NCBI GenBank assembly: GCA_050633245.1
Contig: JBOEGD010000018.1
Coordinates: 64,001-128,000 of the forward strand
DNA from: Calditrichia bacterium
GTDB lineage: Bacteria > Calditrichota > Calditrichia > RBG-13-44-9 > J075
Length of the DNA stretch: 64,000 nt
Direction of reading: 5' to 3'
The notes under the pieces are model-generated. The model saw only the letters and a list, made by a program, of their open reading frames with translations, made no database searches and was not told where the DNA came from. How positions within the stretch are numbered: the first letter of the stretch is position 1; every line of letters starts with the position of its first letter. Positions 6,329 through 60,726 of this stretch are shown piece by piece. A program made the position numbers and the translations under genes.

Positions 6329-6347
6329 GTGGTAGTTTGTTGCAGCA

Positions 6348-9716: not shown

Positions 9717-9740
9717 TACAACATCCTTTTGGCAGATAAC

Positions 9741-9775
9741 GTATTGTCGGCGACAAGCCATGTCGCCGACAATAC
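9741..9775. repeat. Perfect 15-bp inverted repeat between the peptide gene and the TPR-CHAT gene
   Basis: GTATTGTCGGCGACA-AGCCA-TGTCGCCGACAATAC, no U-tract. Confidence 0.8.
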
Positions 9776-11673: not shown

Positions 11674-12321
11674 TTACTTTTTCCTTAACTTATCTCTTAG
11701 CGTATAACAGATGCGCTGGATATAACTGCGCTGTGCTGCCAGGCGTTTTTCCTCACTGGGATCATTGGCTAAATTTGACTTTAATTTGTTTTGGGAGAAT
11801 CTGCCTATACACGGGTGATTCCAAACGGTGTTTGGATGAATTTCTCGCATCATTGCCAAATAAAAAATATGGATGTCCCGCTCTGCCTGCGTGCCCTGGT
11901 CTCTGATAGCTTTTGCACGTAGCTTTTCTACCTTTTCTTCATAGAACTCCATTCGATTAAACCCTTCTTGAGGGATATCATTAATCGATATTTCTTCATC
12001 ACTCTCACGCTTTTTATAGCGGCGCCAATATGCCGTGATGGTATTCTTTGTTATTATCCGTAGCCAGGTTACGAAAGCCGCAACATTATCAACTTTCTCG
12101 AATGTATGCAGACTTTTATAAACATTTGTCCAGACTTGTGAGGCAAATTCATTAACAAGCTGGGGAAGATTTCCTGTTTTCCAGCCCTTGCAATATTCCC
12201 ATGCCAGTTTATGTACGTAGTCAGAAAAGCTGTTTTTTAGTTCAACCCAACCGCGATTGCTTTTCGCAGTATTTTTATCCAAACAGAGTTTGATGAGTTC
12301 AGCAAGTCTTTCGTCATTCAT
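11674..12321 (-). CDS. ECF-type sigma-70 family sigma factor
   Basis: Region 2: EFASQVWTNVYKSLHTF...FVTWLRIITKNTITAYWR; divergent region 4. Confidence 0.8.
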   Translation of the reverse strand: MNDERLAELIKLCLDKNTAKSNRGWVELKNSFSDYVHKLAWEYCKGWKTGNLPQLVNEFASQVWTNVYKSLHTFEKVDNVAAFVTWLRIITKNTITAYWRRYKKRESDEEISINDIPQEGFNRMEFYEEKVEKLRAKAIRDQGTQAERDIHIFYLAMMREIHPNTVWNHPCIGRFSQNKLKSNLANDPSEEKRLAAQRSYIQRICYTLRDKLRKK

Positions 12322-12722: not shown

Positions 12723-15700
12723 ATGAAATCGAATGATGCTTTCATCAAGTATGCAGAAACGCAGTTTACCTCTATTTCAGAACGAATAGAACCGTTTCTA
12801 GAATTACGTTCGCTGTCAACTGAAGAAGTGGAACAGAAAGATCAGGAGCTGGCCCATGCTGTTCGGATTGCGCTTCTTTTCATGGCGACACGGAGGCATT
12901 CCTATCAATCTACTCCATATGAAATTGAAGCCACCTTTGAAAAATTTATTGACAAAGAAGTTTGTACTAATCTTGCCTTTTTTGCCAGAGGCTATCCCTT
13001 GCCGACTCACGCTTTTATACAAAAGTATTTATATGCTGAACAGAATAGTGCTGAGAAGAATTCCTTAACACGTCGTGATGCGGAAAATGTGATTTGTGCA
13101 TTTCTAGTCGGGTATGCAATTGGTATAGCGCTGAGTTCTATCCTTGGTTCTTCCTTTAGAAAACAATGGTTGTTCGAATACATAGAAATAACCGAAAGAG
13201 AGTTTAAAGAGCTGTTGGGGGAAACCGAAAAGTTCATTTTGGGTTCGAAGCCAAGAATCTCAACTAATGGAAGTCGGTTGCAGGTAGGGCCAGAAAATGA
13301 TCCAATTTGTACGGTTGTGGTTAGAAGTTATTACCTGAGCTCTAATAAAAAACGCATTGAAAGTAGTGATCCGCCGCCTTCCCGAGTTTCTATTGGCGGA
13401 GATGTTGATGGATCGATTATTGCCAGTGGAGAAAATATAACGATAAATGATGGTCATTCTAACACTCATGCATCAATCTCTGAATTAAGGAGGGAATATC
13501 TTAACAATATTTTTGGTAAGGTGGATAGACTTGAGCTGATATCCATTTATCATACTGATGATGTAAGTAATAATGAACTGCTAAATCTAAAAGGACTCTA
13601 TGTTAGTCAATCGGCTCAAAAGCTACAAACCTCTGATACGGAGAGTGGTTCTGAAGATAACAATGAAAACATTGTTTTTTCTCCCAAGAAGCCTAAAGTT
13701 GAACAGCGGAATGCTTTAGAATTGGTGCTTGAAGAACCTCGAATGATTTTGTTAGGAGAGGCTGGAATTGGCAAAAGCAGCTTTGTTAATTTCATCATAC
13801 TCTGTCTGGCTGGAGAGGGAATTGGACATGAACAAACGAATCTTCGAACACTCTCGAATTCTTTTGCATCAAACAAAAGTGAATCTAACCCATCTAAAAA
13901 GTGGGTGGATATCCGTGAAAAGATAAAGAACCTTCTTCCAGTTCTTGTCAAGCTTCGTCATTTAGCTTCTTTTCATCAGAAGCATTACAATGCTAACTCA
14001 AACTTGTTAAAAGAGTATATTAGTGCTCAGCTTGAAGGGCTACGGCTCTCAGAATATAGGTTGCCGCTTTTTCGAGAACTCAAAGATCAGGGTGGAATTT
14101 TGCTGCTAGACGGTCTTGATGAGGTAAATGGCATTGAAGAGTTTCAGAGATTGTTGTCTAAAGAAGTTATTGACTTCAGTAGCCAGTATCCCAAGTGTCG
14201 GGTTATTATTACCAGTCGCAAGCTTGGCTATGAGCGTCGAAAGTGGGCATTCAGTAATTTTGCAGAAGCTGAGCTTATGCTGTTCAATAGAGAACAAATT
14301 AACTATACTATTCGTCGGTGGTATGAGCTGATTCAGACAAATAATCGCTCAGCTAAACCTCAGTATCAAATAAAAGAGACTGAGATTAAAGAGTTTATCG
14401 ATAATAATCGCTATGTATTTAATCTTGCGCAACGTCCATTGCTTTTAACCCTGATGTTAAGCTTAAACACCTGGGGGCATGGAAGTTTACCAAAAGAAAA
14501 AGCAGATTTATATGACCGAGCCGTAATGTTGTTACTGGAAAACTGGGAAGTGCGGAAAGCTAAAACATTAGGCAAGGATGGGGGCAATGCCCCTTTATCA
14601 GCATATATGAAGATTGGTAAAGAAGAAATCCGAAAGTTATTGAGCCTGTTGGCATTTGAGGCCATACAAGATAAGGAACAGGCAGAAGGCGGTTTATATA
14701 TTTCAAAAGATAAGCTTATTCGTAAGCTCTTTGATTTAAATAATAACTCGTCGGTTAACTTGGCCGATTTGGAACAATATCTGAGTGAGCGTAGCGGAAT
14801 TTTAGTACCAATTGGCGAAGACCGCTACACTTTTTCGCATAGAACTGTTCAAGAATATATGGCGGCATGCCATTTAACAGAAAAGCATAACTTTCCAGAA
14901 GAAATTGCCAAATTGGCTCGGGAAGATCCTCCTCGCTGGAGAGAAGTTGTTCTTCTTGCAGCGGCAAAAGCATCTTTTAAATTACGAAACAGCATCTGGC
15001 TGCTTTGTAATGCTCTCTGTGTTAAGGCTCCAACTGGAATGTCACGCATTACGGAAAATCATTGGGGAGGGCAACTGGCAGCCCAGGCATTGCTGGAAAC
15101 TATTCCACCTGATGAAATCCCCGAAACCTATTTACCGGTGAAAAAAAAGCTGCAAAATTGCTTGAAATCCATTATTTCCCATTCAAAGTTTGAATTAAAT
15201 GAACGGATATTAGCCGGGCTTAATTTAGCAGCGTTGGGAGATAATAGAAGGCATATCTGTGAAGTTGATAGAGCTAAATTTACATTTGTTCCTGGTGGAG
15301 ATTTCTGGATGGGAGCAGCAGAGAATAATAAACATTCCTATCCAACTGAACAGCCGGGGCATCTAAACCCCGACTTGGTAATGTCTTTCTATATGTCAGT
15401 TTTCCCGGTTAGTAACGGGCAATTTACGGTTTTCGAAAAGGAGAGAGGCTACGATTGTAGTATTTATTGGGAGGAGGCCGCAAAAATCGGTATCTGGAAA
15501 GAAGGATATCTTGTTAGTAATTGGTCCGATGATGTTAGAAATGCCCATAAGGATTACGGATCACAATTTAATGCGGTTAATCAGCCGGTTGTTGGCATTA
15601 CTTGGTATGAAGCTCTTGCATACTGTCGTTGGTTGGACAACCGGTGGAAAAAGATGAAGATGCTCTCTTCTGGTTACCAGGTTGTATTGCCTTCAGAACG

Positions 15701-16175
15701 AATGTGGGAAAAAGCCGCTCGAGGTGGCGTAAAAATACCTGCAAAAAAGCGAATTAAGCAAATAGGATCCCTTGAGTGGTCTGAGCATGAAATTGTTGGA
15801 AACATACTCGAGCAGAGACAATATCCATGGGGGGATGCTATAACCATTGATTTTGCACTTTTTGCCGAACACAAATTAATTTCGACGAATCCGCTGGGTT
15901 GTTTTCCCGGGGGGGAAAGTCCTTATGGGTGTCAGGAAATGTCAGGAGGAATTAATGAATGGTGTTCTACAAAATGGGGGCACTCATTAGATAGTGGCTT
16001 TGTTGAACAGATCGATGAAAGTAATGAGAACCGTGTGATTCGCGGTGGGGGCTGGTCTAATTCAGCTTATCATATTCGTTGCTCACACCGCTTTAACGCC
16101 GTTCCCACTCTTTACATGCAGAACATTGGCTTCAGAATTGCCGTTGTTCCTAAAGATATGGTAACTGAGGGCTAA
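12723..16175 (+). CDS. NACHT NTPase with C-terminal FGE-sulfatase (SUMF1-like) domain, bacterial NLR-like protein
   Basis: Walker A GEAGIGKS, Walker B LLLDGLDE, ITSR, PLLL, FSHRTVQEY, WREVVLL; FGE motifs FWMG, LPSERMWEKAARG, YPWG, SPYGCQEMSG, RVIRGGGW, IGFR. Confidence 0.9.
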   Translation: MKSNDAFIKYAETQFTSISERIEPFLELRSLSTEEVEQKDQELAHAVRIALLFMATRRHSYQSTPYEIEATFEKFIDKEVCTNLAFFARGYPLPTHAFIQKYLYAEQNSAEKNSLTRRDAENVICAFLVGYAIGIALSSILGSSFRKQWLFEYIEITEREFKELLGETEKFILGSKPRISTNGSRLQVGPENDPICTVVVRSYYLSSNKKRIESSDPPPSRVSIGGDVDGSIIASGENITINDGHSNTHASISELRREYLNNIFGKVDRLELISIYHTDDVSNNELLNLKGLYVSQSAQKLQTSDTESGSEDNNENIVFSPKKPKVEQRNALELVLEEPRMILLGEAGIGKSSFVNFIILCLAGEGIGHEQTNLRTLSNSFASNKSESNPSKKWVDIREKIKNLLPVLVKLRHLASFHQKHYNANSNLLKEYISAQLEGLRLSEYRLPLFRELKDQGGILLLDGLDEVNGIEEFQRLLSKEVIDFSSQYPKCRVIITSRKLGYERRKWAFSNFAEAELMLFNREQINYTIRRWYELIQTNNRSAKPQYQIKETEIKEFIDNNRYVFNLAQRPLLLTLMLSLNTWGHGSLPKEKADLYDRAVMLLLENWEVRKAKTLGKDGGNAPLSAYMKIGKEEIRKLLSLLAFEAIQDKEQAEGGLYISKDKLIRKLFDLNNNSSVNLADLEQYLSERSGILVPIGEDRYTFSHRTVQEYMAACHLTEKHNFPEEIAKLAREDPPRWREVVLLAAAKASFKLRNSIWLLCNALCVKAPTGMSRITENHWGGQLAAQALLETIPPDEIPETYLPVKKKLQNCLKSIISHSKFELNERILAGLNLAALGDNRRHICEVDRAKFTFVPGGDFWMGAAENNKHSYPTEQPGHLNPDLVMSFYMSVFPVSNGQFTVFEKERGYDCSIYWEEAAKIGIWKEGYLVSNWSDDVRNAHKDYGSQFNAVNQPVVGITWYEALAYCRWLDNRWKKMKMLSSGYQVVLPSERMWEKAARGGVKIPAKKRIKQIGSLEWSEHEIVGNILEQRQYPWGDAITIDFALFAEHKLISTNPLGCFPGGESPYGCQEMSGGINEWCSTKWGHSLDSGFVEQIDESNENRVIRGGGWSNSAYHIRCSHRFNAVPTLYMQNIGFRIAVVPKDMVTEG

Positions 16176-17197: not shown

Positions 17198-20100
17198 GGG
17201 GAAGGAGCTTTCTTTCTTAACGAGTCTGGAAGATATATCGTAAATTTTGTTGGGTTTCTTTTATTTGTCAGTTCGATCTCACCACTATGAAACTCAATGA
17301 TCTTTTTTGCTACAGAAAGTCCGGTACCAGTGCCATATACGTCAATTTTTTTTACGTTGCTGCCGCGCTTGAACTCTTCAAATATGATATCAAGATCATC
17401 ATCCGCAATACCAATGCCCCAGTTCAAAACACTGATAGTATGCCATATCTTATTTTTAATGCCCGGGAAATCATGATGTCTTGTTGCGCAGATTATTTCG
17501 ATGTTTCGCAGACCGTATTGCGAATACTTCACTGCGTTATCGAGTAGATTCCAAATCGCCTGTTCAATGCGAAAAAAATCTAGATATAATTCAGGAAAGT
17601 CATCTGGAACAACTTTTATTTCAATGTTTTTATCTAATCTTGCCTTTGATCGTAATGCATTAGCGACTTTTTCGATAATTAAGTTCGGGTTAGTTGGAAT
17701 ATATTTATATAAATTGATTGCTTCGGAACTATCCCATGCCTGTATTTCAATATCCCCAATTACCCAATTTAGGATCTCGATCTCGGTTCGGAAGGATTGG
17801 AAAAGCGAATTAATTTGATCACTCTCCTCATTTAATTCTTGTTTCAATGTCTCCTGAAGGTAATCTGTAGACGAAAGCATCACATGTAACGGATTGCGTA
17901 ATTCGTGACTTAAATAATTAAGAAAATTCTGCCTTTGCTGATTAAACTCTATGTTCTCGATAATTTTTGTAACAATACTTCCAGTTAGATTTAGAAAGTC
18001 TTTGTCACCCTGTAGAAAAGATATAGGAGCATTTTGTGGATTTTGCCTATTTATACAGTTTAGAACACCGATAGATTTTCCACGACTGTCAATAATAGGA
18101 GTGGAAATCATTGAGATGCTTTTAGTACGTCGCTCTTTAATCAGATTTTCGGAATTGTAGTCATTTTGATAAGCATCGAAAATAAGTGTGGTCTCTCTGC
18201 GATTCATCACCTCAAATGTAATACTGTTTTCATCCCCATGATAAATATCTACCCCTATTACCTCTTGAATATCAACATTTTTTCTTTCAAAAAATTTTGT
18301 TGCCTTTTTCGCCGTTGTTGCTTTAAGGTATAAAGCATTATGATTAGGGTTTAACATATATAGAGAACAGGTTTCTGAGTCAATGACTTCTCTTATCATT
18401 TCAACTAAATTATGGTAAACGTTTTCTTCACCAGCTTGCTCGAATTTATGCAACCCTTTTCTAAGTAACTCTAGCTGATGAAACTGATTTCTTAACTGGG
18501 TTCGTTCTACGATGACACCAAGCCTTTTGGCAATACGCTTTAATCGCCTTTCGAGTTCGGTATTTGGCGAGTTATTATTTAGAGGGAGTTTGAAGCACAT
18601 TATTCCAATAAGTGTAGAAAGTTGCTTAGAAAACTTTTTTTTATAGCTTTCTCGAGATAGGAAATTAATCGGAACAATTAGATAAGTGAATTTACTGTTT
18701 TCTTCAAATAATTTACTTATTTCAGGGTACTTGGGTTGATCGATAAAAATCGAATCGAATCGCTTGATCTCATCAGAACTCTCACTCTCTAAATAATCAC
18801 CAAAAACAATGTCATCTTTATTAATCAGAAGAAACTCTTTATCTGCAAGAGGGACGCTTAGTTCCTTAGAAGCATGCTTTTTTACATATAAGAAATGCTT
18901 ACCAAAAATAAACTTTAAATTGTTTGGTTGTGCCTCTCCTTTAAATCCTTCTTCTATTGGCAGCCAGAATGATGCATGAGCAAAGTTGAGGTTTGTTGCC
19001 AAATACTTCAGCATTTTTACAAAGACCTCATTGATGTCATCAATGCCAGACAGCTCATTGAGGAACTTTTCCTCTTCCAAGCGCTGAAGCTCAAACTCTA
19101 GATTCTTCTCATTCTGTAGTGCAACTGCCAATTGAGAGGCAATTGTATTCATTATGCGCGTTTGATTTTTTGTAAATCCGACAGGTAATAAACTATCTTT
19201 TGAAAGATTCTTTCCTTCATTATTTTCTTTAAGTCGATTCAGCAATACGATGAATCCCAATGGCTCCTTCTCGCTGGAATACATTGGCGAAATTAACAGG
19301 TGCTGCAGTTTCCCGGTTCGTAAAATTTTATCTCTAGTAGTTTTCGCACCGCTGGAATCGAACTCAATGCCAAGCTTCCTCCTGTATTGATTCGAGCGAT
19401 CAAATAAATCCCCATGCCTCTTTGTATCCCAGTAAAACGTACGTTTGTCTGTAGGAACGATTTGCCGTGTTTTCAAGATTGAACCGGATAAGGAGCTGTC
19501 GGTGTTACGCGTTTGTAGGCTTCGTAATATTGCTGCCAACTCTTTTGTTAACTCAAAGGCCGTATAGGTTGCCTCATCAATAATTTCGTTGTTTTGACAA
19601 TAGCCGATGGCACAGTATTCAACCTGCATATTTGTTCCAATTTTTTCACAATACGTCTGTAGCTTCTCCTCCAAGGTAGTAGAAGTCTGATTGGTCTCAA
19701 TTTCAGCAACTTCCTGAAGAGCAAAGATAAGTCTATTCTGGAGTTGGCGAGCCTCAGTAAGTTCACGAAAACGATTACTGTTCTGCAAGTATAGAAAGGT
19801 GCCCAAAGCAATTGAACAGATCATCCAAATAAGAGAAAGGGTTTCAAAGTTATAGCCGACATTGAAAAACAGAGGGAGTAAAAAAGCGCAACTTGAGACG
19901 CTACCGTCACCTAAAAGGTATACTCTGTTCACTTTTCCGCCATCAGACTTTAAATAGGTAGGAAAATAGTATGAATGTAGAAATATATATAGATAGCTAA
20001 CGTGCAACAGATGTTGCACGTTAATTGTAAAGGCAACTGCCAAGCAATATATTGCCATGACATCCAAAACTATTGGCAATACCCTCATAGAAAGAATCGA

Positions 20101-20919: not shown

Positions 20920-22092
20920 ATGAATGAATTAAAACGGTTTCAACTGGGTACTCACCGTGTTGCCAGTCCGGACAAAACTCTGGAAAGGGTTCGCCCATAC
21001 CTGAAAGCGATGGGGATTACCCGGGTAGCAAATGTTACCGGTCTCGATACAATCGGTATTCCGGTGGTGACGGTAATGCGTCCCAACTCCCGCTCGCTCT
21101 CAGTAGCCCAAGGGAAAGGTGTAACCCTCGAATCAGCTAAGGCCTCTGGGATTATGGAATCCATTGAAGCCTACCATGCAGAAACAATCTCACACGAGCT
21201 ACGATATTGCCATCTCGAACAAATTCTCGCCGAGGGACAGCAAGCGGTTTCAGAGGGACTACCGTTAACTGGCCTTATACCGTTCATGTCATCGCGTAAA
21301 ATACTTTGGATTCAGGGGCGATCGTTATTTACCCGACAACCTACTTGGGTACCATATGAAGCAGTTCACCTCGACTTTACCAAACCACTTCCAACAGGTA
21401 GCGGTGTGTTTGTCCAAAGTTCCAATGGATTAGCTTCAGGGAACAGTAAAAACGAGGCGATTGGACACGCTTTGTGCGAACTTATTGAGCGCGATGCCGC
21501 TGCAAGATGGCATCGCGGATCAGATCATCGTTATCAATTAGATCGAGTGGATTTGTCTAACGGACTTGATGATGTAAATCGCGAATTGCTGAAAAAATGC
21601 GCTGCTGCAGACGTTGAGGTTGCCAGCTGGAATTTGACCACCAAAATCGGAATTCCGGTTTTTTATACACTGCTGTTTCCCTCAAAAGATTCAACACTGA
21701 TGAATCGCGGTGCGATAGGCGGATATGGTTGCCATCCAAATACTGCAATCGCATTAGGTCGTTCCATAACTGAAGCCGCTCAGGCTCGTTTAACCTTGAT
21801 CTCCGGATCTCGTGATGACCTGCTGCCTGAGCGTTATAACGAGCTGCTGGATTATGAAAATACGCATGATCTTGTAAATAAACTGGGTGTGCAGGAAAGG
21901 AAGATAAGTTTGAGCCAGACTCGATCTTTTAGTGCCTCGACTTTTGCGGAGGACATCAAATATCTTCTGAAGTCCCTGCAAGCGAATGCGTATGATGAAG
22001 CGGTAGTAGTCGATCTGTCTCAGGAGCGATTTAATATACCTGTCGTTCGGGTCTTGGTTCCCGGTTTGAAATTGGCACAAAGGAAGCATTGA
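20920..22092 (+). CDS. ycaO: YcaO-family protein, TfuA-associated (thioamide-forming) type
   Basis: GITRVANVTGLDTIGIPV, QGKG, MESIE, SSNGLASGN, ELIERD, EAAQARL, ISGSRDD, VPGL; no C-terminal PxP. Confidence 0.92.
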   Translation: MNELKRFQLGTHRVASPDKTLERVRPYLKAMGITRVANVTGLDTIGIPVVTVMRPNSRSLSVAQGKGVTLESAKASGIMESIEAYHAETISHELRYCHLEQILAEGQQAVSEGLPLTGLIPFMSSRKILWIQGRSLFTRQPTWVPYEAVHLDFTKPLPTGSGVFVQSSNGLASGNSKNEAIGHALCELIERDAAARWHRGSDHRYQLDRVDLSNGLDDVNRELLKKCAAADVEVASWNLTTKIGIPVFYTLLFPSKDSTLMNRGAIGGYGCHPNTAIALGRSITEAAQARLTLISGSRDDLLPERYNELLDYENTHDLVNKLGVQERKISLSQTRSFSASTFAEDIKYLLKSLQANAYDEAVVVDLSQERFNIPVVRVLVPGLKLAQRKH

Positions 22093-22093
22093 T

Positions 22094-23233
22094 ATGAATA
22101 CCTCTCGCAAACCGATTGTCTTTTTGGGACCCTCCCTTCCTCTTCATAAAGCTGAGAAATACCTCGACGCAGACTTTCGTCCTCCGGCCGCCTGTGGGGA
22201 TGTGTATATGGCAACTCTGGAAGCACCTGATGCGATTGGTATAATAGACGGATATTTTGAAAATCGTCCAGCGATATGGCATAAAGAAATCCTTTGGGCA
22301 CTTAAGCAAGGTGTCCAGGTATTTGGGGCTGCAAGTATGGGCGCATTGCGAGCTGCAGAGTTACATCACTTTGGAATGAGAGGCGTTGGTGAAATTTTTC
22401 GACAGTTTGCCACTGGTGAGCTGGAAGATGACGATGAAGTGGCTATTATACATGGTCCAGCTGAGTTTAAATATGCAGGTATGTCAATGGCATTGGTGGA
22501 TTTGCGTAGCTTGCTAAAAAAGGCCAGTGCAGAAAGCATTATAAGTGCCGAAATTGAAAATTCACTGATTAGTAAAGCTAAAGCTTTGCACTATTCGCAA
22601 CGCACAAAGAAAGCCATTCTTGATTCTGTGCAGCAGGTGTCTGGAGATGCATGTTCGCGGATAAAATCTTGGTTGGAGTCCCAATTTCAATACAGTCAAA
22701 AATCTATCGATGCTATCCAAATGCTAAATGCGATGCAGCGCCCATGTTCCATGTCATATCAGAGTAACATACCGAACTTTGTGTTTCATAAAACCGACAA
22801 GTGGTATAGATTTACTCGTTATTTTGAAGGTAGACTAGCTCTCACAACAAATGAACTTCAATCAGGTAGAGGAACTGAGGGGTTTGCTGAAGCGGTAATG
22901 TTGCGTCAAATGCTAATTGAGAAAGCAGAGCGATTGCAATTAACTATTCCTTCTTCCAAAATAGAAGAGGCCTGCTGCCTGTTTCGGACCCTGAACAATC
23001 TGACATCCGATAATATGTTTGGAATTTGGCTTAAGCAAAAGGGATTAAAGCCTAATTCATTTAAGAGTATTGTAAGAGATCAGCTTCTTGTGAAAAACTG
23101 TGCGAAATTAACCACATTCAAATTGCCTAAACATTTACAGGCTCTCACATGCCTATTTTCGGAAGCTGAAAAAATCGAGAAGATCAGCGAACAGATTTTG
23201 TGGCCTCAGGCAAAAGCAGACTTGAAAAGTTAA
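22094..23233 (+). CDS. tfuA: TfuA-like protein with C-terminal helical extension
   Basis: VFLGPSL, PPAACGD, IIDGYF, WHKEIL, GAASMGALRAAEL, DDDEVAIIH; starts 1 nt after ycaO stop. Confidence 0.92.
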   Translation: MNTSRKPIVFLGPSLPLHKAEKYLDADFRPPAACGDVYMATLEAPDAIGIIDGYFENRPAIWHKEILWALKQGVQVFGAASMGALRAAELHHFGMRGVGEIFRQFATGELEDDDEVAIIHGPAEFKYAGMSMALVDLRSLLKKASAESIISAEIENSLISKAKALHYSQRTKKAILDSVQQVSGDACSRIKSWLESQFQYSQKSIDAIQMLNAMQRPCSMSYQSNIPNFVFHKTDKWYRFTRYFEGRLALTTNELQSGRGTEGFAEAVMLRQMLIEKAERLQLTIPSSKIEEACCLFRTLNNLTSDNMFGIWLKQKGLKPNSFKSIVRDQLLVKNCAKLTTFKLPKHLQALTCLFSEAEKIEKISEQILWPQAKADLKS

Positions 23234-23402
23234 TTAAATTTTTTTCTGATACAGACGTTTGAAATTTCCAGAGGACTTCTCGACGAGTAAAGAAAATAAG
23301 TGTTTTCTCTTAAACTGCATTGAAAAAGCAGAAATAATGCCTCAAGCCAATTATTACGATCTATTTAATGGCCTATCTATTATGCGCGACAATGGCCCTC
23401 CT

Positions 23403-23438
23403 AAAAAAGAGAGCTGATCAACCGAAGTCGATCAGCTC
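23403..23438 (-). terminator. Rho-independent terminator with C(UUCG)G loop
   Basis: Minus strand GAGCTGATCGAC-TTCG-GTTGATCAGCTC-TCTTTTTT. Confidence 0.7.
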
Positions 23439-23639
23439 CCAAAATAGGCCCACTCCCCAGTAGGACCCTATTTTATATCATTTGAATACAAAACGTCGGT
23501 ATAGACGTGGACTTGAATTATAGCAAGTCTGTTGATAGTTTAAACTTTCGAAAAAGCCTGCCTTTCAACTCCGTTTTCTAATATCTATTTGGGTCAATAA
23601 CGTTTTGCAATTCAAGGTAGAATGATTAATTCTGCATAC

Positions 23640-23656
23640 TACAATTGGTGTGCCAA
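23640..23656 (-). promoter_or_regulatory. Possible sigma54 -24/-12 promoter
   Basis: Minus strand TTGGCACACCAATTGTA versus consensus TGGCAC-N5-TTGCW (one mismatch at the -12 C); divergent from a sigma54 activator gene. Confidence 0.35.
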
Positions 23657-23913
23657 ATCAAACTTCGTTGCTCAAGTGTTTGTTTATATTGACTTAAAAG
23701 TTGAATGCCTGAGATTGGATTGAAGTTGATTTTGTTTGCTATTTGCAAATATCATTTTAAAATATTGTTTAATTGAAAAAATTTTGATATTTTCCCTTAT
23801 AGTGCTACTCCCCATAATGCCGTTTAGAGGTTTGAGAAGATACTGTCTTTCTCGCGGTGTTCTTCTAATACTGTAGCTTAATGAGTCTCTCATTACTTCA
23901 TTCCGGGGATTTT

Positions 23914-25737
23914 ATGAATCTCAACTCAACTCAAATTAAATCATTACTGCAGTTTCAAGCACTGCGTCGTGCGATATCTCCCGGGATAGATAAAACGATG
24001 ATGTTGCGGCAAATTTTAAGTGCCACTCTTATGGCGCTCGATAGCCGCTGGGGTTACATTTTTCTTTTTGGGGAGGATAATTTGACTCTTGCAGGAAAAA
24101 TTCCACCCTCGCAAACCGAACAGGCGATCAAAGAACAGGCAACTGAGGCATTGTTTAGTGGCCGGCAATCCGATACTGATCTATTGATTAAGAAACCACA
24201 CCACCTTGGGGCAGCACTTTGGAGTGAGAGGCAAAATATTGGCCTGCTTTGTGTTTTCGATAAGTTTGGCAATGAAAATGTTGTACCTTTTGTCAGCAAT
24301 GATGAAACGCTGCTCTCCGTTATTGCTGCTACTGCCTCTGTCGGTCTCGAAAAGCTGAATGCAGATCTCGAAGTTGAAAGACTCAAAAAACAAGTTCCGC
24401 AAAATAACCTCCAAAGTTTTATTATCGGAAGTAGTGCTAAAACCCGCGAGCTACTTAAGCAAGTTCAAGCAGTTCTGGATTTTAGCGGCAACATCTCTGT
24501 GCTGATTCAGGGAGAAAATGGAACGGGTAAAGAGCTGGTTGCAAAAGCGATCCGTCTCTACGGACCTTATAGCAAAAGCGGCAATTCTCATACTGTGAAC
24601 TGTGCTGTTTTTACGAAAGAACTTTTACGGAGCGAACTCTTTGGGCACAAGAAAGGCGCCTTTACAGGTGCTGTTTCGAACAAACGTGGCTTAATGGAAC
24701 TCGCGAATAACGGTGTGTTGTTTCTTGATGAAATCGGAGACCTGGATATAGAGTTACAGTCTACCCTTCTGCGGGCACTTGACGGGGGGACTTTTAGGAG
24801 AGTTGGAGATGAACAGGAACTGTATTCTGATTTTCAGCTTGTCTGCGCGACCAATCGAAATTTAAAAGAAGCTGTAGAGAAGGGAACATTTCGCCGGGAT
24901 CTCTACTATCGCCTCACGGATATTATTATTGAGGTGCCACCGTTGCGCGAGCGACGCGGAGATATTGCAGAACTTATTAGCTATTTTTTGGAGAAGTATA
25001 ATAAGGAGTTTAACAAAAACATTAAAGGCTTCACGAGGCGAGCTATTCATCGACTTGAACAACACCCTTGGGAAGGTAACGTACGCGAGTTGGAAAGTAT
25101 GGTCAAAAAGGGAATGATACATGCCACAGGCAGCCATATTGACGTTTCGGAGCTGTCCAACGAGTTGCAGGGCGGCATCGGAGAAGCACTGGAGTTTAAC
25201 CAAATTCTACCACTAAAGGACGCTGTTGCAAGTTATGTGGATTTTGCATATAATAGGCTGGATCAGCACACGACTCATACGATGCAAAAGCTGGAAATCG
25301 ACTATCGACAATTGATGAGGCATCTGGGTAAGAGGATTGATGAACACATGGTGTTTGACTTGAAAGACGGCGTTGAGCTGGACATTGCCAAGCGCGCTGA
25401 AGAGATAATGCGGCACGCAGATATTCCAGACGAAAAATGTCGGGGTATGAAACGTGCCCTTATAGAAGCCGTTGTAAATGCACTGGAACATAGTAAAAGC
25501 AAGATCGATAAGTTAAAAGTCGATATTGAAATAACCTCACGTTTAGTTAAAGTTATGGTTAAGGACCTTGGAACAGGATTTAACCCTGACGTCATTCCGG
25601 ACGTAGATCCTAATTTGAAAATTGTTAGCCGAGTAAAAAGAGGGTGGGGGATCTACCTGATGAAGAAGAGTGTCGACAGCTTGAAGATCGATAGCAGTTC
25701 AAGCGGAACGACCGTAACGATGACAATTAATCGCTGA
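23914..25737 (+). CDS. Sigma54-dependent enhancer-binding protein (GAF-AAA+) fused to an RsbW-type anti-sigma kinase domain
   Basis: GENGTGKE, SELFGHKKGAFTGA, LFLDEIG, FRRDLYYRL, WEGNVREL; C-terminal ALIEAVVNALEH, DLGTGF, RGWGIYLMK, GTTVTM. Confidence 0.9.
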   Translation: MNLNSTQIKSLLQFQALRRAISPGIDKTMMLRQILSATLMALDSRWGYIFLFGEDNLTLAGKIPPSQTEQAIKEQATEALFSGRQSDTDLLIKKPHHLGAALWSERQNIGLLCVFDKFGNENVVPFVSNDETLLSVIAATASVGLEKLNADLEVERLKKQVPQNNLQSFIIGSSAKTRELLKQVQAVLDFSGNISVLIQGENGTGKELVAKAIRLYGPYSKSGNSHTVNCAVFTKELLRSELFGHKKGAFTGAVSNKRGLMELANNGVLFLDEIGDLDIELQSTLLRALDGGTFRRVGDEQELYSDFQLVCATNRNLKEAVEKGTFRRDLYYRLTDIIIEVPPLRERRGDIAELISYFLEKYNKEFNKNIKGFTRRAIHRLEQHPWEGNVRELESMVKKGMIHATGSHIDVSELSNELQGGIGEALEFNQILPLKDAVASYVDFAYNRLDQHTTHTMQKLEIDYRQLMRHLGKRIDEHMVFDLKDGVELDIAKRAEEIMRHADIPDEKCRGMKRALIEAVVNALEHSKSKIDKLKVDIEITSRLVKVMVKDLGTGFNPDVIPDVDPNLKIVSRVKRGWGIYLMKKSVDSLKIDSSSSGTTVTMTINR

Positions 25738-25751
25738 GGACGTGAAGGCGC

Positions 25752-26105
25752 ATGGACAAGCTACAAATTGAGTTTGAAAATGGTATTCCGATTCTGAAAT
25801 CCGGTAAATTACTGGATAATGAATTCAAAAACGATGTGACTGCGTTCCTGGGGAGCAATAAAAACGGTTCTGGTTATGTTATTGTTTTGGATCTCGGGGC
25901 TGCAGAAATCGTATATAGTTACGGCATCTCGGCTATTCAGGATCTTTGCGATAGCGCAGAAGAAGCGAATGGAATTTTTGCCCTGTGTGGCGTGTCTAAA
26001 GTTGAGGTGAGCGAGGTACTTGAAATATCTGCTCTTCTGGATCGTTGTGCTCCGCACATCTATAAAGATCGCACTGCGGCCATATCAGCACTAGCAAATT
26101 TGTAG
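25752..26105 (+). CDS. STAS-domain anti-anti-sigma factor (RsbV/SpoIIAA-like)
   Basis: SGKLLD, IVLDLGAAEIVYSYGISAI (Ser at the usual phosphosite position), VSEVLEISAL; 117 aa. Confidence 0.75.
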   Translation: MDKLQIEFENGIPILKSGKLLDNEFKNDVTAFLGSNKNGSGYVIVLDLGAAEIVYSYGISAIQDLCDSAEEANGIFALCGVSKVEVSEVLEISALLDRCAPHIYKDRTAAISALANL

Positions 26106-26111
26106 GATCCC

Positions 26112-29100
26112 CTAGGTGGTGGCGATACGCTTAATCACCATCATCGTAATATCATCATCTTGCTGTTGCATTTCATTGCCATGCTTTTTTATCCCTTCTA
26201 ATATGATATTTAATACATCGATCGGGTCTGCCGATGACTCGCAATTTTCTAATTCTCCAATCAATGTTCTGAAATAAGAGACACCATCTTCACTTTTAAT
26301 GCTGCGCAGCCCATCGGAATATAAAATCAAGAAGCTTCCTGCCTTAAGCTGCATCTCCTGAGTGAAAATATTCTTACCTCTACTAAGATTGCGGGTACTT
26401 AAACCGTTGCCAAGCGGACCGTTATTTTGACCTGCGACCTTCATAAATTCAATGGAACCATTAGTAAGTTTTATAGGAGGATAGCACCCCGCATTTAGCA
26501 GCTCTATTCTATCGGAGTCTTTGCTGAGCATGGTAAGAATTGTTGATACACGCTTGCCGTCCAGCTTCTGATAAAACAGCCGATCGACCTCAATCGCAAT
26601 TTGTTTCAGTGATGGCGGATGGTCACTGAAGATAACACCATTCAACAGTCCGTTTAGGAGAGTCGCAGGTAATGCGCCGGACATACGTTTTCCCTCTACG
26701 TCAGCAAGGGTGAGCAGATGATTTTTACCGTCATTTAAAACGATATAGTCGTAGTGATCACCACCAACATCTGCAGCAGGCGAAAAGTATCCGGCTACTG
26801 AAAATCCTTCCAGACCCGGATAGAGCTTCGGGATTAACGCGCGCTGTGCTTCTTCTGCACTCCTAATTTCCTTCTCTAAATACTCTTTTTGTGCTTTAGC
26901 AATTCCGTGGTTTCTTCCCAATATCGAAAACCCATACGCTGTGGCAACAGCTAAACTGGCGTAAAAAAGGTAGGCCCAAATACTTCGATACCAAGGCGGC
27001 AGAATGTGAAATTGATAGCTGCTGGTTTTGCTGATTTTGCCCAGAGCATTACGGGTGCGAACATCGAAATGATAAGTTGCTTCTTTCAGATATGTATAGT
27101 CCCGAAGAGGCTCACGTGTCCATTTAGACCAAGAGCCCATACCTGGCCTCAACTGGTATTGAAACTCGGGAAGCCCATTGTTAAAAAAACTGTTACTCGC
27201 TACTTCGAAGCGCAAGCTATTCTGCTCATAGTTGAAGGTTAGCACTGTATCAGGATGACTCGTAAAAATTTCACCAGACAGTGTATCACCATCAATTACG
27301 CTAAGTTGTCGCAGGCTCGTTAGGGGATGCGGATACTCAAAATGTGGTTGTGTAAGATCGTATATAAATACACCCGCTGTTGTTCCATACCAAACCGCGC
27401 CAGGTTGAGTGTAGAGGACATTCGTCTGAGGCATGCTTAGTGCCGGAAGCGGGCTATTAAGAATTGAGTAGTAACCGTTTTTATTATGTGTTGCAACATA
27501 GGCCTTTTTGTTTGCCGTAAACCATATTCGTCCATCACTTGCTTGTTTCAGGCGATAAATGGGAGCAGAAATCTCAGTTACTATCTCATTAAATCTTGAG
27601 GCCTCAATGAACAGGTTTTTTGGGGAATTATAGCGGAAGATACCCGTTTTGGTAATAAAGATCGGGGCATTGTCTACAGAGAAAATTCGCACTCGTTTAT
27701 CGGACTCAGGAACGGGAATGTCGTGGTGTTGAAGTATGCTCTCATCAGTTCTACGAAAGGATTGCTCTGATGATTGTTCAAACATCTTAATACTGGAAAG
27801 CCCGTCTGTTGAGCCTATCCAGAGCCTGCCGTCGTTATCTTCCTGAAGATGATGTATTTGGTCTCCGACAAGAGTAAGCGATTTGGGAACAACGGACTCA
27901 AGACCCTCAGTAAAATCAACGCTGTAAATAGAGTTGCCCCCGGCAATGTAAATTAGATCTTTGTCGATAGCTGAGGGTTCAAAAATGTATGCAGATTCGC
28001 CTGTAAGAGACTGAATAGGTGTGAATGGGGCTGCTTTGTCCTTCTTGAAAAATACACCCTTCGTGGTTGCTGCAAGCAAGTTTTGTCCGATGGTAATAAA
28101 ATCCCAGCTCGCCACATTAGAAAGTTCGGATTCTAATACCGGGTTTGACATAGAAATGTCCTCCGAGCGTAGAGAAAAAATTCCACGACTCGTTGCAATA
28201 TACATTCGGTTCTGATATGACTGTATTGCATTAGTAATACCATCATCTATTTTCAGAGTGCCGAATGGCAGGCTATATTGGATGCGGCTGATGCCGCCTT
28301 CTTGTGCAAGCCAAATACTCCCTTCGCGGTCTATATTTGCGTAGAGAGACTTATTGCTTAGTATTCCACTTTGCTTATCAAATACATGTTGAATATTGTC
28401 ATCACGATCTGAAACAATTAAGCCTGCTTCACGCGTTGCAAAGGCAAATGTAGAGTCATATAAAAGCGTACCCATTGATATAAAATGAGACTTTAAATAA
28501 TTGGAGACATTGGGCAGCGTTGGTGATACGTTGACTCCATTGTATAGAAAAGCGCCATGGCGCTGTGTTGTTAGTAAAAGAGTGTTTTGATTGTAAGGAA
28601 GAACAGAGCGGACTTCTTCACCATTCTGGAAGTTAATGCCTGGAAGCAGTTTTAGATGCGTATTGGTAAGCTCGATTAGCTGTTTTTTATCTCTCCGGAT
28701 ATAAATAGAATCGTTGACTCTAAAAGTCGGATACAACTGTATTCTCTTTTTGCCTTTTTGCCGGGAAGAGTCTGCAATCAAAGTTGTTAGTTCTTTGCCG
28801 TCCCAGCGAAGAATCGAATACAGCGGGTGAAAATACACCGTGTCGTTCAAAACGTATGTTCCATAGACCGTGCCAATGTCCGGTTGCTCTAGTAAGGACG
28901 TGTATGATAGCTGTCCTTTGGAATCTCGCTGCATATAACCGATTCTGCTGCTGCCTCCAATAAAGAGCCGACCATGACGATCTTCTGCAAAGGAATCAAC
29001 ATTATTACCGGGAACGACATGATATCGCCACTCCTGTCCATCATATTCCAGCAGCCCCTCATTGTTACCTACGTAAATCAAGCCATTCTTGCTTTGGAGA

Positions 29101-29297
29101 ACGCACCAGTTTTGTGGTCCGCGTTTGTAAGTATCCGTTGAAAAGTTCTCGATAAACTTATTGCTGCTATAAGAATTCAGAGTTCTCTTCAGTTCAGGGT
29201 GTTCAGGTTGAGCGAATACTACTCCGCAATAAACCAAAATAAAAATAAGGCTGCAGCGTGCTTTTCTATATGTTGGACGGGAATATGCAGCCATCAT
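26112..29297 (-). CDS. Beta-propeller/Y_Y_Y sensor with cytoplasmic PP2C (SpoIIE/RsbU-type) phosphatase
   Basis: Signal peptide, propeller repeats, YTYLKEATYHFDVR, ILPPWYRS plus TM, AEEAQRAL, VGGDHYD, LADVEGK, NAGCYPP, LYSDGL, DDITMM. Confidence 0.9.
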   Translation of the reverse strand: MMAAYSRPTYRKARCSLIFILVYCGVVFAQPEHPELKRTLNSYSSNKFIENFSTDTYKRGPQNWCVLQSKNGLIYVGNNEGLLEYDGQEWRYHVVPGNNVDSFAEDRHGRLFIGGSSRIGYMQRDSKGQLSYTSLLEQPDIGTVYGTYVLNDTVYFHPLYSILRWDGKELTTLIADSSRQKGKKRIQLYPTFRVNDSIYIRRDKKQLIELTNTHLKLLPGINFQNGEEVRSVLPYNQNTLLLTTQRHGAFLYNGVNVSPTLPNVSNYLKSHFISMGTLLYDSTFAFATREAGLIVSDRDDNIQHVFDKQSGILSNKSLYANIDREGSIWLAQEGGISRIQYSLPFGTLKIDDGITNAIQSYQNRMYIATSRGIFSLRSEDISMSNPVLESELSNVASWDFITIGQNLLAATTKGVFFKKDKAAPFTPIQSLTGESAYIFEPSAIDKDLIYIAGGNSIYSVDFTEGLESVVPKSLTLVGDQIHHLQEDNDGRLWIGSTDGLSSIKMFEQSSEQSFRRTDESILQHHDIPVPESDKRVRIFSVDNAPIFITKTGIFRYNSPKNLFIEASRFNEIVTEISAPIYRLKQASDGRIWFTANKKAYVATHNKNGYYSILNSPLPALSMPQTNVLYTQPGAVWYGTTAGVFIYDLTQPHFEYPHPLTSLRQLSVIDGDTLSGEIFTSHPDTVLTFNYEQNSLRFEVASNSFFNNGLPEFQYQLRPGMGSWSKWTREPLRDYTYLKEATYHFDVRTRNALGKISKTSSYQFHILPPWYRSIWAYLFYASLAVATAYGFSILGRNHGIAKAQKEYLEKEIRSAEEAQRALIPKLYPGLEGFSVAGYFSPAADVGGDHYDYIVLNDGKNHLLTLADVEGKRMSGALPATLLNGLLNGVIFSDHPPSLKQIAIEVDRLFYQKLDGKRVSTILTMLSKDSDRIELLNAGCYPPIKLTNGSIEFMKVAGQNNGPLGNGLSTRNLSRGKNIFTQEMQLKAGSFLILYSDGLRSIKSEDGVSYFRTLIGELENCESSADPIDVLNIILEGIKKHGNEMQQQDDDITMMVIKRIATT

Positions 29298-29442: not shown

Positions 29443-29471
29443 TCTACAGGTTTCGTCAAGAAACCTGTAGA
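29443..29471. terminator. Hairpin downstream of the 123-aa gene
   Basis: TCTACAGGTTTC-GTCAA-GAAACCTGTAGA, 12-bp perfect stem. Confidence 0.55.
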
Positions 29472-29522: not shown

Positions 29523-29894
29523 TTAGCTTGGCGGGTCATCCTTGATTTCGATTTCCCCCTCATTCGTTGAAGGATGGGCCGGTGTCATATCATCTGGAAT
29601 AAATGCGACATAAATTTTCCCCTCCAATTCTCCGCTATCGTCAGGAAGTGATATCGTAATCTGTCGCTTTGCCGGACTAAGAGTCGCTTCGACATAGATA
29701 AACTCACTAAAATCGGCGCTAACCTCCAGAACGTCATTCGCAATCCCACCTGTCGCGATGGGGTTTGTTCCTCCTTCACCCGGGCTAGCGCTCGGTGAGA
29801 TCTGGGACAGACTGCTGGTAGTACTGTCGAACTTGAAAACCTTCATACTACTGTTGGTTTGAGTTGAGACATTCTTGATTTTAATAATGTCCAT
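29523..29894 (-). CDS. Hypothetical protein (123 aa, acidic, probably beta-rich)
   Basis: AAGGAG RBS, clean ORF, downstream hairpin; no recognised motif. Confidence 0.7.
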   Translation of the reverse strand: MDIIKIKNVSTQTNSSMKVFKFDSTTSSLSQISPSASPGEGGTNPIATGGIANDVLEVSADFSEFIYVEATLSPAKRQITISLPDDSGELEGKIYVAFIPDDMTPAHPSTNEGEIEIKDDPPS

Positions 29895-30396
29895 GTGGTC
29901 TCCTTTCCAATGATAGGATTAAGTAGATTAATTTTGGGGCGCAGTTTGACGTAGTTATGAGAAAGAACGATTGCAGTTTCTTGAAAATCCCCTGCGAATT
30001 TTAGGGGGAGTATGTTTGGCAGTGATATGTGATGGGTCTGAATGTGCAGGAATAAGGCAACTTAGGGGCCAATGTATAGGATTTGCTCTATCTGTAATAT
30101 TGTCAGGTCTTTAAGAGTTGCGGTCCTGCACTATCGTTTTTGTTGAAAAATTTGCATTTTCAGAACAAAAAAATCCCAAAATTGCAATTAGCAAATAGTC
30201 TACAAGGATGTCGCTCTTTGCTGACGAGTTGGCTGGGTTAAAAAAGAAAGCTGCATGAAGGAATTGGCAGAGATAAGTAATGAATTGGGCAGGCTATCGC
30301 TTGTTGGTGAGCGAAGAAGGTAGTGTACTTATTTTCTCAACGCTTGCTCAGTGAAATGGAAACGCTATATTTTTATATATCTACAGAGAAAGCATC

Positions 30397-51225: not shown

Positions 51226-51227
51226 AA

Positions 51228-53075: not shown

Positions 53076-53084
53076 AGATTGAAA

Positions 53085-53546
53085 ATGACCCGACTGCACA
53101 TAAATAAGCGCGAGTATTCCGCAAAAGCGGATGCAGACATGCCACTACTCTGGTATCTGCGAGACATCCTGAACCTGACCGGCACAAAGTTTGGATGCGG
53201 TATGGGGCTTTGTGGTGCGTGCACGGTGCTCGTCGATGGTAAGGCTGCGCGGTCTTGTATGGTAACGATCAGTAGCGTAGAAAATAAAGAAGTGACAACA
53301 ATTGAAGGCATCTCACAGCGAATGAATAATCGTCTGCAGCCGGTCTGGATTGAAGAGCAGGTGCCTCAGTGTGGCTATTGTCAAACTGGACAAATAATGT
53401 CCGCGCTGGCTCTACTCAAAACAAATCCAAATCCCTCAAATGAGGAAATTGAAGCGGCGATGTCTGGCAATATTTGTCGCTGCGGAACGTATTCGAGAAT
53501 TAAGAAGGCAATTTGTTCAGCTATCGGTGAGGAAAGCCGTGGCTAA
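53085..53546 (+). CDS. iorA: (2Fe-2S)-binding small subunit, isoquinoline 1-oxidoreductase alpha-like
   Basis: PLLWYLRD, GTKFGCGMGLCGACTV, RSC, VPQCGYCQTGQ, NICRCGTY. Confidence 0.92.
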   Translation: MTRLHINKREYSAKADADMPLLWYLRDILNLTGTKFGCGMGLCGACTVLVDGKAARSCMVTISSVENKEVTTIEGISQRMNNRLQPVWIEEQVPQCGYCQTGQIMSALALLKTNPNPSNEEIEAAMSGNICRCGTYSRIKKAICSAIGEESRG

Positions 53547-55665: not shown

Positions 55666-55916
55666 GCTTATGTAACTCATCTCCGATGAGCTGATAGTAA
55701 AATATAGCATAGTAGTTGAGATTAATCGAAGCTGTCGTGAGTGCGGTGGCTATAGAAATGAACAAAAAAATAATGTCTGGAGGAACGTACCCGGTTTTTC
55801 TTGGTCGAACTTTCCGCTTAACACGGAGAGCCCAATATAAGGACTGCACAAACTAAATTTTCCACACGTTTATTGCATTTGGTGGAATTGTGTTAAAACC
55901 CTTTAGGAGAAATAAC

Positions 55917-57405: not shown

Positions 57406-57474
57406 GGCTCAATTCACAAAAGAGAATATGTGTCCTTTGTCTGCACAAATCTTAAGGCCGGAAGGAATAACAGC

Positions 57475-59841: not shown

Positions 59842-59844
59842 ACT

Positions 59845-60702: not shown

Positions 60703-60726
60703 AACGCAGGATGACACGGGAGCATC

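Follow-up and report, generated by a model that had tools for sequence, protein, structure and literature searches.

A candidate serine-phosphorylation partner switch attached to a sigma54 activator in Calditrichota

Introduction

The question raised by this locus is what an RsbW-type kinase domain does at the end of a sigma54 activator. The locus lies in a 64,000-nucleotide stretch of a Calditrichia bacterium genome (contig JBOEGD010000018.1, positions 64,001 to 128,000), which we call the window. An earlier note, made from the sequence alone, had described the fused protein together with a STAS protein and a phosphatase, and had started from the premise that RsbW/V/U triads control sigma70-family factors. 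Control of sigma70-family factors is indeed the canonical role (PMC8256260), but the premise is too narrow, as diguanylate cyclases (PMC8457831) and a repressor (PMC13373217) are outputs as well, and the targets of several non-canonical triads are still unknown (PMC8256260). For sigma54 activators, control by receiver phosphorylation, by ligand binding and by protein binding in trans is tabulated, and a C-terminal kinase or STAS control is listed for none of the five groups in that table (PMC7175178 Table 1). We found no publication describing a partner switch wired to a sigma54 activator. Based on domains, locus layouts and candidate promoters, such a switch is attached to the activator described here and probably controls it.

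The activator–kinase gene

The fused gene (P0001) is a single open frame on the forward strand, 23914..25737 (607 aa; 618 aa from an alternative start at 23881), with no stop codon across the activator–kinase junction. One chain carries, in this order, a GAF-like domain, an AAA+ domain, a Fis-type helix-turn-helix (HTH) and a kinase domain of the SpoIIAB/RsbW fold. In the numbering of the 618-aa frame, Pfam places Sigma54_activat at 181-350 (E 2e-57), the AAA lid at 356-431 and HATPase_c_2 at 502-615 (E 6e-17), so the GAF-AAA+ activator with an intact GAFTGA motif and a C-terminal anti-sigma kinase domain, as claimed in the earlier note, is indeed seen in one frame. The AAA+ domain and its lid (24421..25173, +) contain Walker A, GAFTGA (24655-24672), Walker B, the R-finger region and sensor II, which together with the Sigma54_activat match are the features of a sigma54 enhancer-binding protein; GAFTGA is exact in 10/12 family members and altered in the other two. 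The N-terminal GAF-like domain (23959..24363, +; boundaries approximate) is a weak Pfam match in the window protein (E 0.078) and lies above the cut-off of 22.4 bits in two relatives with split genes (L003, 23.2 bits; L004, 25 bits). This region keeps 18 family-conserved residues of its own, so the activator may also be ligand-controlled independently.

Is the fusion real? Eight other full-length fusions were found at 36-54% identity, and two fragments. With the window protein included, 9 full-length proteins and both fragments read through the junction in frame, and GC3 is similar on its two sides (0.43 vs 0.46). Since the in-frame fusion recurs in relatives and GC3 matches across the junction, an assembly artefact or a stop codon lost in this contig alone is excluded. 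The C-terminal 183 aa had no match in a plasmid collection, and no cluster carrying both domains was among the matches listed in an atlas search, a listing that does not speak for their absence. A full-length AlphaFold2 model built from 4 sequences reached a pLDDT of 43.6 and was set aside.

The HTH (25213..25326, +) consists of three helices, predicted at pLDDT about 90-96, and is conserved in 12/12 family members. That it is divergent, as had been claimed, is reflected in the window protein having no Pfam match to HTH_8; still, at 94% probability (hhalign, E 1e-7) the family profile aligns with the HTH found at the C-terminus of ordinary activators, by which loss of the HTH or its replacement by the kinase is ruled out.

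The kinase domain (25336..25734, +) begins about 4 residues past the HTH and contains the N-box (25465-25491), DxGxG (25564-25578) and GWG (25642-25650); N-box, DxGxG and xGWG are present in 9/9 full-length fusions. Its fold matches SpoIIAB with Z 18.8 (rmsd 2.7, 130 aligned residues). SpoIIAB/RsbW chains score Z 15.8-18.8 in the structure search as against 11.2 at most for histidine kinases, and a histidine-kinase catalytic domain was rejected on these values. By fold and motifs this is an RsbW/SpoIIAB-type kinase, and phosphorylation of the STAS serine is predicted, with the residues for it present on both partners. In a tree of 84 kinases all 13 module kinases fall inside one 15-row branch (SH-aLRT 96). 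Residue R514 is kept in 10/13 module kinases and in 0/62 others, a pattern that hints at a module-specific surface and does not indicate its partner. Among 23 matches scanned, tails of the RsbW type were also seen on 6 cyclases, 1 HD-domain protein and 2 ATPase_2 proteins; they may be a portable STAS-gated switch, used on these three kinds of protein as well as on activators.

The STAS protein and the phosphatase

The activator gene is followed, as the earlier note had it, by a STAS-only protein (25752..26105, +; 117 aa). The window protein matches STAS at E 3e-4, below the Pfam cut-off, and its four locus relatives are above it (E 4e-10 to 2e-6). The family profile matches SpoIIAA (E 3e-7) with the serine in register; at the aligned SpoIIAA position, 1th8_B has Ser and 1tid_B has Ala. 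The predicted phosphoacceptor is Ser56 (codon 25917-25919), and this Ser and the Gly of the loop are invariant in 6/6 proteins. The loop itself is unusual: the canonical D-S-S/T-G (D-S-S-G in 1th8_B) is absent in 6/6, with Y-S-Y-G (the window protein), N-S-F-G or N-S-H-G in its place, so that the residue before the serine is Tyr or Asn (Asn in 4/6).

Another option is that the kinase phosphorylates the activator or some other substrate, with STAS inhibiting by competition or acting as a sink for phosphate. The anti-sigma-like kinase CapK does act on a transcription factor, by phosphorylating the repressor CapS (PMC13373217), and at least 10/12 family members here keep T140 and S142 in the GAF-AAA helix. 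However, CapK targets a serine in the STAS domain of its repressor, no such domain is present in the activator here, and a separate STAS protein with an invariant serine is the obvious substrate. We regard this option as very doubtful.

The phosphatase gene (26112..29297, −) encodes 1061 aa with an N-terminal hydrophobic leader, beta-propeller repeats, a probable membrane segment and a SpoIIE domain. Pfam detects SpoIIE (E 2e-17) and Reg_prop repeats, and SpoIIE is above the cut-off in 5/5 locus phosphatases. These proteins are only 20-27% identical overall, and the PP2C acidic motifs GGD-x-x-D, D-VEG, SDG and DD-x-T, together with DVEGKRM, are invariant in 5/5. The convergent PP2C of the earlier note is therefore present, whereas the periplasm-sensing role given to it there rests on a presumed topology, since the membrane segment of the window protein (residues 775-793) scores 1.48, under the threshold of 1.6 that 3/4 relatives pass.

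Locus organization and distribution

Related loci were viewed with 10 kb flanks. Activator, kinase, STAS and then a convergent PP2C are found in the same order and orientation in 5/5 loci (the window and 4/4 related ones). Activator and kinase are fused in 3 loci and are separate adjacent genes in L003, where they are 6 bp apart, and L004, where they overlap; the split kinases are 138-148 aa long and match HATPase alone. Fused, split and overlapping arrangements are the pattern expected of stoichiometric partners. In the tree the activators form one branch (100/100), within which the fused forms are a sub-branch (92/79) and the split forms lie outside. The family is small and, in the genomes covered here, confined to Calditrichota and one Bacteroidota genome.

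A canonical sigmaB or sigmaF cassette includes a cognate sigma70-family gene. None was found among the 51 locus ORFs scanned (143 listed), and the lone sigma candidate of the window is a sub-threshold Sigma70_r2 match 11.5 kb away. The activator occupies the place that the sigma factor has in the classical cassette. The proposal of the earlier note that the activator couples two sigma systems finds no footing in these loci. The gene for sigma54 itself, rpoN, is not within the 64-kb window, and an rpoN search for Caldithrix returned nothing relevant.

It may be asked whether the target of the triad is a sigma70-family factor, or something else, encoded elsewhere, the activator being co-expressed and following its own GAF signal and the fusion being incidental or coupling regulons. 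This would agree with the canonical role of RsbW/RsbV/RsbU (PMC8256260) and with reported triads of Chlamydia, Bordetella and Vibrio whose targets are distant or undefined, and a sigma factor could be encoded beyond the 10 kb flanks. Against it stand the lack of a sigma gene in the locus ORFs, a kinase that tracks one activator branch, a fusion kept at the identities given above, and the promoter signal on the phosphatase side described below. We judge a distant target rather improbable.

Candidate promoters and palindromes

The best consensus match to a sigma54 -24/-12 promoter in the 64 kb (candidate promoter A, 23640..23656, −; 1 mismatch) points away from the activator gene, and a candidate activator-binding palindrome, TTTGCA-N3-TGCAAA with 1 mismatch, is centred at -112 from it (23735..23749). 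Promoter A was one of the training sites of the model used below. A candidate non-coding transcript from it (23400..23630, −) ends in a terminator hairpin (23440-23409) with a U run and has no ORF of more than 16 codons; Rfam gave 0 matches at gathering score in 135 kb, this transcript included. Candidate promoter B (30056..30072, −) lies upstream of a gene for a 123-aa protein and of the phosphatase gene, with two candidate palindromes (30151..30195) centred at -112 and -142. The conserved palindrome upstream of putative sigma54-type promoters, at about -111 and -142, is new here.

A promoter-plus-palindrome model was trained on four sites, with 40 shuffles as background. Four held-out sites score 27.9-32.2 (promoter B, 27.9) against 27.8 for the best of the 40 shuffles. 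We rely on this test, as a fixed-window composite test had been devised after the sites were seen. The four training and four held-out sites, all in silico, are spread over 4/5 loci, and three of the held-out ones head the phosphatase-side gene run, in 3/3 fused loci. The trained model gave no convincing site in L004, where candidates at 4408 and, picked by eye, near 4282 were rejected, and L003 has no site on the phosphatase side.

The first gene after promoter B (29523..29894, −) encodes the 123-aa protein, which matches no known family; an atlas search from a poor query model gave unnamed matches only. A small gene stands in the equivalent place in L001 and L002, at 14-19% identity, which does not imply homology. 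A hairpin (29443-29471) lies between this gene and the phosphatase gene, and read-through from promoter B into the phosphatase is given this hairpin an unproven prediction.

Proposed mechanism

A mechanism that would fit these data has four steps. The beta-propeller of the membrane PP2C would sense something outside the cytoplasm, as its domains suggest. The PP2C would strip the phosphate from STAS Ser56 and the RsbW-type domain would restore it, as is known for these families and as the residues present on both sides would allow. In the third and least certain step, a kinase domain free of STAS may inhibit the activator through contact, within one chain where the two are fused and in trans where they are split, until the kinase domain is occupied by unphosphorylated STAS and the activator is set free. 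The HTH would then bind the palindromes and the AAA+ ring would open the sigma54 promoters, from which the divergent transcript and, in the fused loci, the gene run ending in the phosphatase would be made, giving feedback.

That the STAS phosphorylation state gates sigma54 activation, as the earlier note had proposed, thus gains indirect support from the 5/5 layout, the coexistence of split and fused forms, the kept catalytic residues and the conserved sigma54-type promoters with their upstream palindrome. A self-contained partner switch that has a sigma54 enhancer-binding protein for its output, this protein being released when STAS binds the kinase domain, is a tentative reading to which we give slightly less than an even chance. 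With the same reserve, we suggest its history: an anti-sigma-type serine kinase may have been turned into an anti-activator, a separate protein in the basal forms and later fused in cis, and released by STAS under a phosphatase whose gene run the activator turns on. Some observations sit awkwardly with this explanation, namely the retained GAF-like domain, the unusual STAS loop, the locus L004 without a site and L003 without one on the phosphatase side, the altered GAFTGA in two family members, the hairpin ahead of the phosphatase gene, the absence of rpoN from the window, and the syp STAS switch of Vibrio, which lies beside its activator SypG and acts after transcription.

The main rival is direct binding of STAS to the activator. 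Phosphorylated or unphosphorylated STAS would bind the GAF-like domain or the GAF-AAA+ helix and shift the oligomer state, the kinase would merely write the phosphate, and the fusion would be a tether. STAS-like proteins bind output enzymes directly in SiaC-SiaD, HsbA-HsbD and BgrV-BgrR, and SiaC makes its contact through N67-T68-S69 (PMC8457831), to which the Asn before the serine in most STAS proteins here is a weak hint; the 18 residues conserved in the GAF-like region also speak for it. The layout and promoter evidence fits this rival and the third step above alike. On the other side, the short linker after the HTH and the gene overlap in L004 would favour contact between kinase and activator over a tether, and R514 hints at a surface specific to the module, its partner undefined. 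We consider direct binding unlikely, though it is the alternative to be taken most seriously.

Comparison with known systems

If the switch does control the activator, a serine-phosphorylation partner switch would be an added, previously undescribed mode of sigma54 activator control, and an RsbW/V/U triad would gain a defined transcription output. The same mode of control may account for the RsbW-type tails seen on cyclases and other effectors, within the limited reach of a small family. With split and fused versions, a phosphoacceptor and candidate promoters with their sites in hand, the circuit could be rebuilt in E. coli.

With the SpoIIAB-SpoIIAA-SpoIIE and RsbW-RsbV-RsbU switches of Bacillus sigmaF and sigmaB the module has in common the kinase fold, the aligned STAS serine, the PP2C acidic motifs and the clustering of the genes. 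It differs in having a sigma54 activator, kinase-fused in 3/5 loci, in place of a sigma factor, a STAS loop of the form N/Y-S-H/Y/F-G, and a convergent phosphatase with a beta-propeller sensor. Among sigma54 activators, Group 3 enhancer-binding proteins (NifA, NorR, FhlA; PMC7175178 Table 1) have the same domain order, with a GAF or, here, GAF-like domain ahead of AAA and HTH, as well as GAFTGA and upstream palindromes, whereas the proteins here carry an extra kinase domain after the HTH.

Other switches likewise act on an output that is not a sigma factor. SiaABCD, HsbR/HsbA/HsbD and BgrSTUWV also combine a phosphatase, a kinase and a STAS-like protein, but there the STAS-like protein binds the output, a diguanylate cyclase (PMC8457831), and here the output is a transcription activator joined to the kinase. 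CapK-CapS also does without a sigma factor, an anti-sigma-like kinase and phosphorylation of a STAS serine controlling adjacent transcription; there the DNA-binding repressor is CapS itself, and that description includes no AAA+ activator (PMC13373217). The Vibrio syp locus (SypG/SypE/SypA) also pairs a STAS switch with a sigma54-dependent activator that drives transcription of the locus, but SypG, a response regulator, is activated through a phosphorelay, and SypE/SypA act post-transcriptionally on an unknown target other than SypG (PMC4517449, PMC10120452).

The NifL-NifA pair offers a precedent for the contact step, as NifL has a GHKL fold and blocks its activator by contact. In both systems an AAA-HTH activator, with a GAF or, here, GAF-like domain in front, has a co-expressed GHKL-domain partner, and in Azotobacter vinelandii contact with NifL keeps NifA from oligomerising, an effect that the small third protein GlnK modulates (PMC12998190). 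NifL is a PAS-PAS-DH-GHKL histidine-kinase homolog without kinase activity (PMC12998190), whereas here a bare RsbW-type serine kinase, often fused, comes with STAS and PP2C. The partner described here is thus not of the NifL architecture, but this small RsbW-type domain could still work as NifL does.

The activator–kinase fusion and its cassette

The earlier note read a sigma54 activator with an RsbW-type kinase at its C-terminal, followed by a STAS protein and a convergent PP2C phosphatase, and its coordinates and quoted motifs are all present in the sequence. The fusion ORF (23881 or 23914 to 25737, plus strand) is uninterrupted, with no stop at the activator/kinase boundary. Pfam assigns it Sigma54_activat at E 2e-57, HATPase_c_2 at E 6e-17 and the AAA lid, along with a weak GAF match (E 0.078). 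The HTH had been called divergent, and indeed Pfam gives no HTH_8 match in this protein, but its profile still aligns with the C-terminal HTH of ordinary activators (alignment probability 94%). The STAS gene (117 aa) begins 14 bp past the fusion stop, and the SpoIIE-domain phosphatase gene (1061 aa), on the opposite strand, ends 6 bp beyond the STAS stop.

At the level of sequence motifs and models, the individual parts look intact. The exact GAFTGA is found in 10 of the 12 family activators, and the kinase N-box, DxGxG and xGWG in all nine full-length fusions. Modeled with AlphaFold2 (79 sequences; pLDDT 95.5, pTM 0.81), the C-terminal 183 residues form three helices, a linker of ~4 residues and then a kinase fold whose top structural matches are SpoIIAB (Z 18.8, rmsd 2.7, 130 aligned), Rv1364c and RsbW. 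Ser56 and Gly58 are invariant in the STAS proteins (6/6), with Tyr or Asn replacing the usual Asp before the serine. In the alignment with SpoIIAA, Ser56 falls on a position occupied by Ser in 1th8_B and by Ala in 1tid_B, the latter being what we take to be the S58A mutant. The role of SpoIIAA Ser58 is treated in the consulted part of PMC8256260. Five phosphatases keep every acidic motif, with DVEGKRM invariant, at an overall identity of only 20–27% and with dissimilar sensor regions. An intact kinase joined to an activator could also phosphorylate that activator directly; with an invariant STAS serine encoded next to it, we consider this quite improbable.

A rare and conserved family

The fusion recurs in other proteins. 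In a whole-protein search (a capped set of 8000 scored candidates), the kinase domain was found in four of the best 120 matches, namely the window protein and three at 52–54% identity, one of them named Calditrichota. The C-terminal 183 aa gave 744 matches among 1.84 billion representatives, and 8 of the best 150 span the HTH start through the kinase. Both searches combined yield nine full-length fusions and two fragments, at 36–54% identity to the window protein. A database relative, P0005, is alike in GAF-AAA-HTH and its chain stops exactly at the expected kinase start. This activator–kinase wiring is real and conserved, and it is rare.

Trimmed at the HTH and placed in a tree with an outgroup of 24 further activators, the 12 members of the family make up a single branch (support 100/100). 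The nine fused activators form a sub-branch (92/79) with the three unfused ones outside, and 96% of bootstrap trees need one change between the two states; the fused forms may thus derive from one fusion event. A quick tree of 84 kinases, taken from the top C-terminal-search matches only and built on 144 columns (a small number for that many rows), places all 13 kinases of such cassettes in one branch (SH-aLRT 96) with the stand-alone P0138 and P0188, which may be additional split forms.

Gene neighborhood

Two exact peptide patterns, scanned against 185,579 species genomes, gave 316 candidate stretches and four confirmed loci, in three Calditrichia and one Bacteroidetes genome; because the patterns are exact, four is a lower bound. 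All four share the window order of activator, kinase, STAS and then convergent sensor phosphatase. Activator and kinase are fused in L001 and L002; L003 encodes them as two genes with a 6-bp gap, and L004 as two overlapping genes. No sigma factor was found in the 51 gene-like ORFs scanned out of 143 listed in the loci. From these loci we infer that the activator occupies the sigma factor's place in the cassette and that the window is probably from Calditrichota. Partner-switch triads with distant or unknown targets are described in the consulted parts of PMC8256260 and PMC11619594, and the sole sigma-like gene seen in the window is a 215-aa ORF (11674–12321, minus strand) with a sub-threshold Sigma70_r2 match (23 vs 24 bits); a distant sigma70-family factor as the target is unlikely.

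Other genes lie around the cassette. A thioamidation-type YcaO and TfuA pair (20920–23233, plus strand; NCBIfam scores below equivalog cut-offs) is immediately upstream in the window and was not seen in L001–L004. A second YcaO, lantibiotic dehydratase N- and C-terminal genes, an ABC transporter and a molybdopterin-binding protein (49756–63998, plus strand) make up a probable modified-peptide biosynthesis cluster. Possible conflict-system genes encode a caspase-domain/hydrolase protein facing a TPR-CHAT protein (3014–9761) and, at 12723–16175, a NACHT protein that carries an FGE-sulfatase-like domain. In L003, DUF6588 extends across two consecutive plus-strand ORFs (14441–14722 and 14732–15334; profile positions 5–91 and 107–318).

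Predicted promoters and their transcripts

The top window match to the sigma54 consensus (promoter A) lies at minus-strand position 23656 and is oriented divergently to the activator gene, and L001–L003 have weaker matches at the equivalent position. Upstream of all four lies a palindrome, TTTGCA-N3-TGCAAA, centered at -112 relative to promoter A in the window, -110/-140 in L001, -144/-176 in L002 and -111/-143/-175 in L003 (3–4 mismatches), with a period of 30–32 bp. Weight matrices trained on these sites were used to score 14,987 GG positions in 135 kb, with spacing windows that equal the training spacings and were fixed after the further sites had been viewed by eye. The top eight scores are the four training sites and four further sites (32.2, 30.0, 29.5 and 27.9), and the best score per shuffle in 40 block shuffles was 17.0 to 27.8. 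Three of the further sites, one in each fused locus (L002 16781, L001 17019 and window 30072, the last barely exceeding the shuffle maximum), lie before the small first gene of the phosphatase-side run (promoter B). The fourth (L001 17719, plus strand, score 30.0) precedes a subtilase gene (17767–19806) that would be a probable further regulon member; its product has no hydrophobic leader. The trained model found no such site in L004 or on the L003 phosphatase side. A weaker site at L002 8581 (plus strand) points into the activator gene, and its score of 20.4 is inside the shuffle range; autoregulation there is possible and unsupported.

Promoter A leads to a leader-bearing 491-aa gene in L001 and to a 166-aa gene in L003. 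In L002 and the window it is followed by a stretch with no convincing ORF, closed by a terminator-like hairpin. These two structured non-coding candidates (window 23400–23630 and L002 7955–8325, both minus strand) fold better than every shuffle (z -5.6 and -8.0, the terminators contributing partly), match no Rfam family and show no visible mutual resemblance; in the L002 candidate a repeated hairpin occurs in three copies, at distances of 73 and 97 bp. Promoter B leads to the small protein and then the phosphatase, with a zincin-like protein between them in L001 (14158–16407) and L002 (14125–16269, both minus strand; 714–749 aa, 24% identical, E 1e-27) and none at the corresponding place in the window. 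Between the window's 123-aa gene and its phosphatase gene there is a perfect 12-bp hairpin (29443–29471) with no minus-strand U run, so that feedback onto the phosphatase gene is here only likely.

Mechanism and known systems

The sequences directly show the domains and residues, the conserved layout, the existence of both split and fused forms and the promoter signal; we infer the signal sensing, the flow of phosphate and the activator-gating contact. STAS phosphorylation probably gates the activator by some route. Our leading, still tentative, candidate for that route is the kinase domain acting as an anti-activator, and direct binding of STAS to the activator is a less likely one. RsbW-type tails also end six adenylate/guanylate cyclases (P0131, P0140, P0142, P0147, P0161 and P0181), an HD-domain protein (P0137) and two ATPase_2 proteins (P0141 and P0179), among 23 of the best 150 matches scanned; because of these, the comparison suggests that the domain could be a portable STAS-gated tail, a general cis switch. 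Because the promoters are predicted, the circuit is directly testable.

We found no description of an activator–RsbW fusion or of STAS control of a sigma54 activator in the literature covered (mostly main texts of open-access papers); a domain census elsewhere may mention one. This wiring of known parts, a form of partner switching whose probable output is a sigma54 activator, is apparently undescribed. In the portions of the sources consulted, enhancer-binding protein groups are tabulated (PMC7175178, Table 1), CapK-CapS has an anti-sigma-like kinase (PMC13373217) and a REC-RsbW regulator differs in architecture from our fusion (PMC12826045). As far as the consulted parts of these papers go, NifL-NifA and SiaABCD are nearest in working principle (PMC12998190, PMC8457831) and the Vibrio syp locus is nearest in layout, but its switch does not act on its activator (PMC10120452, PMC4517449).
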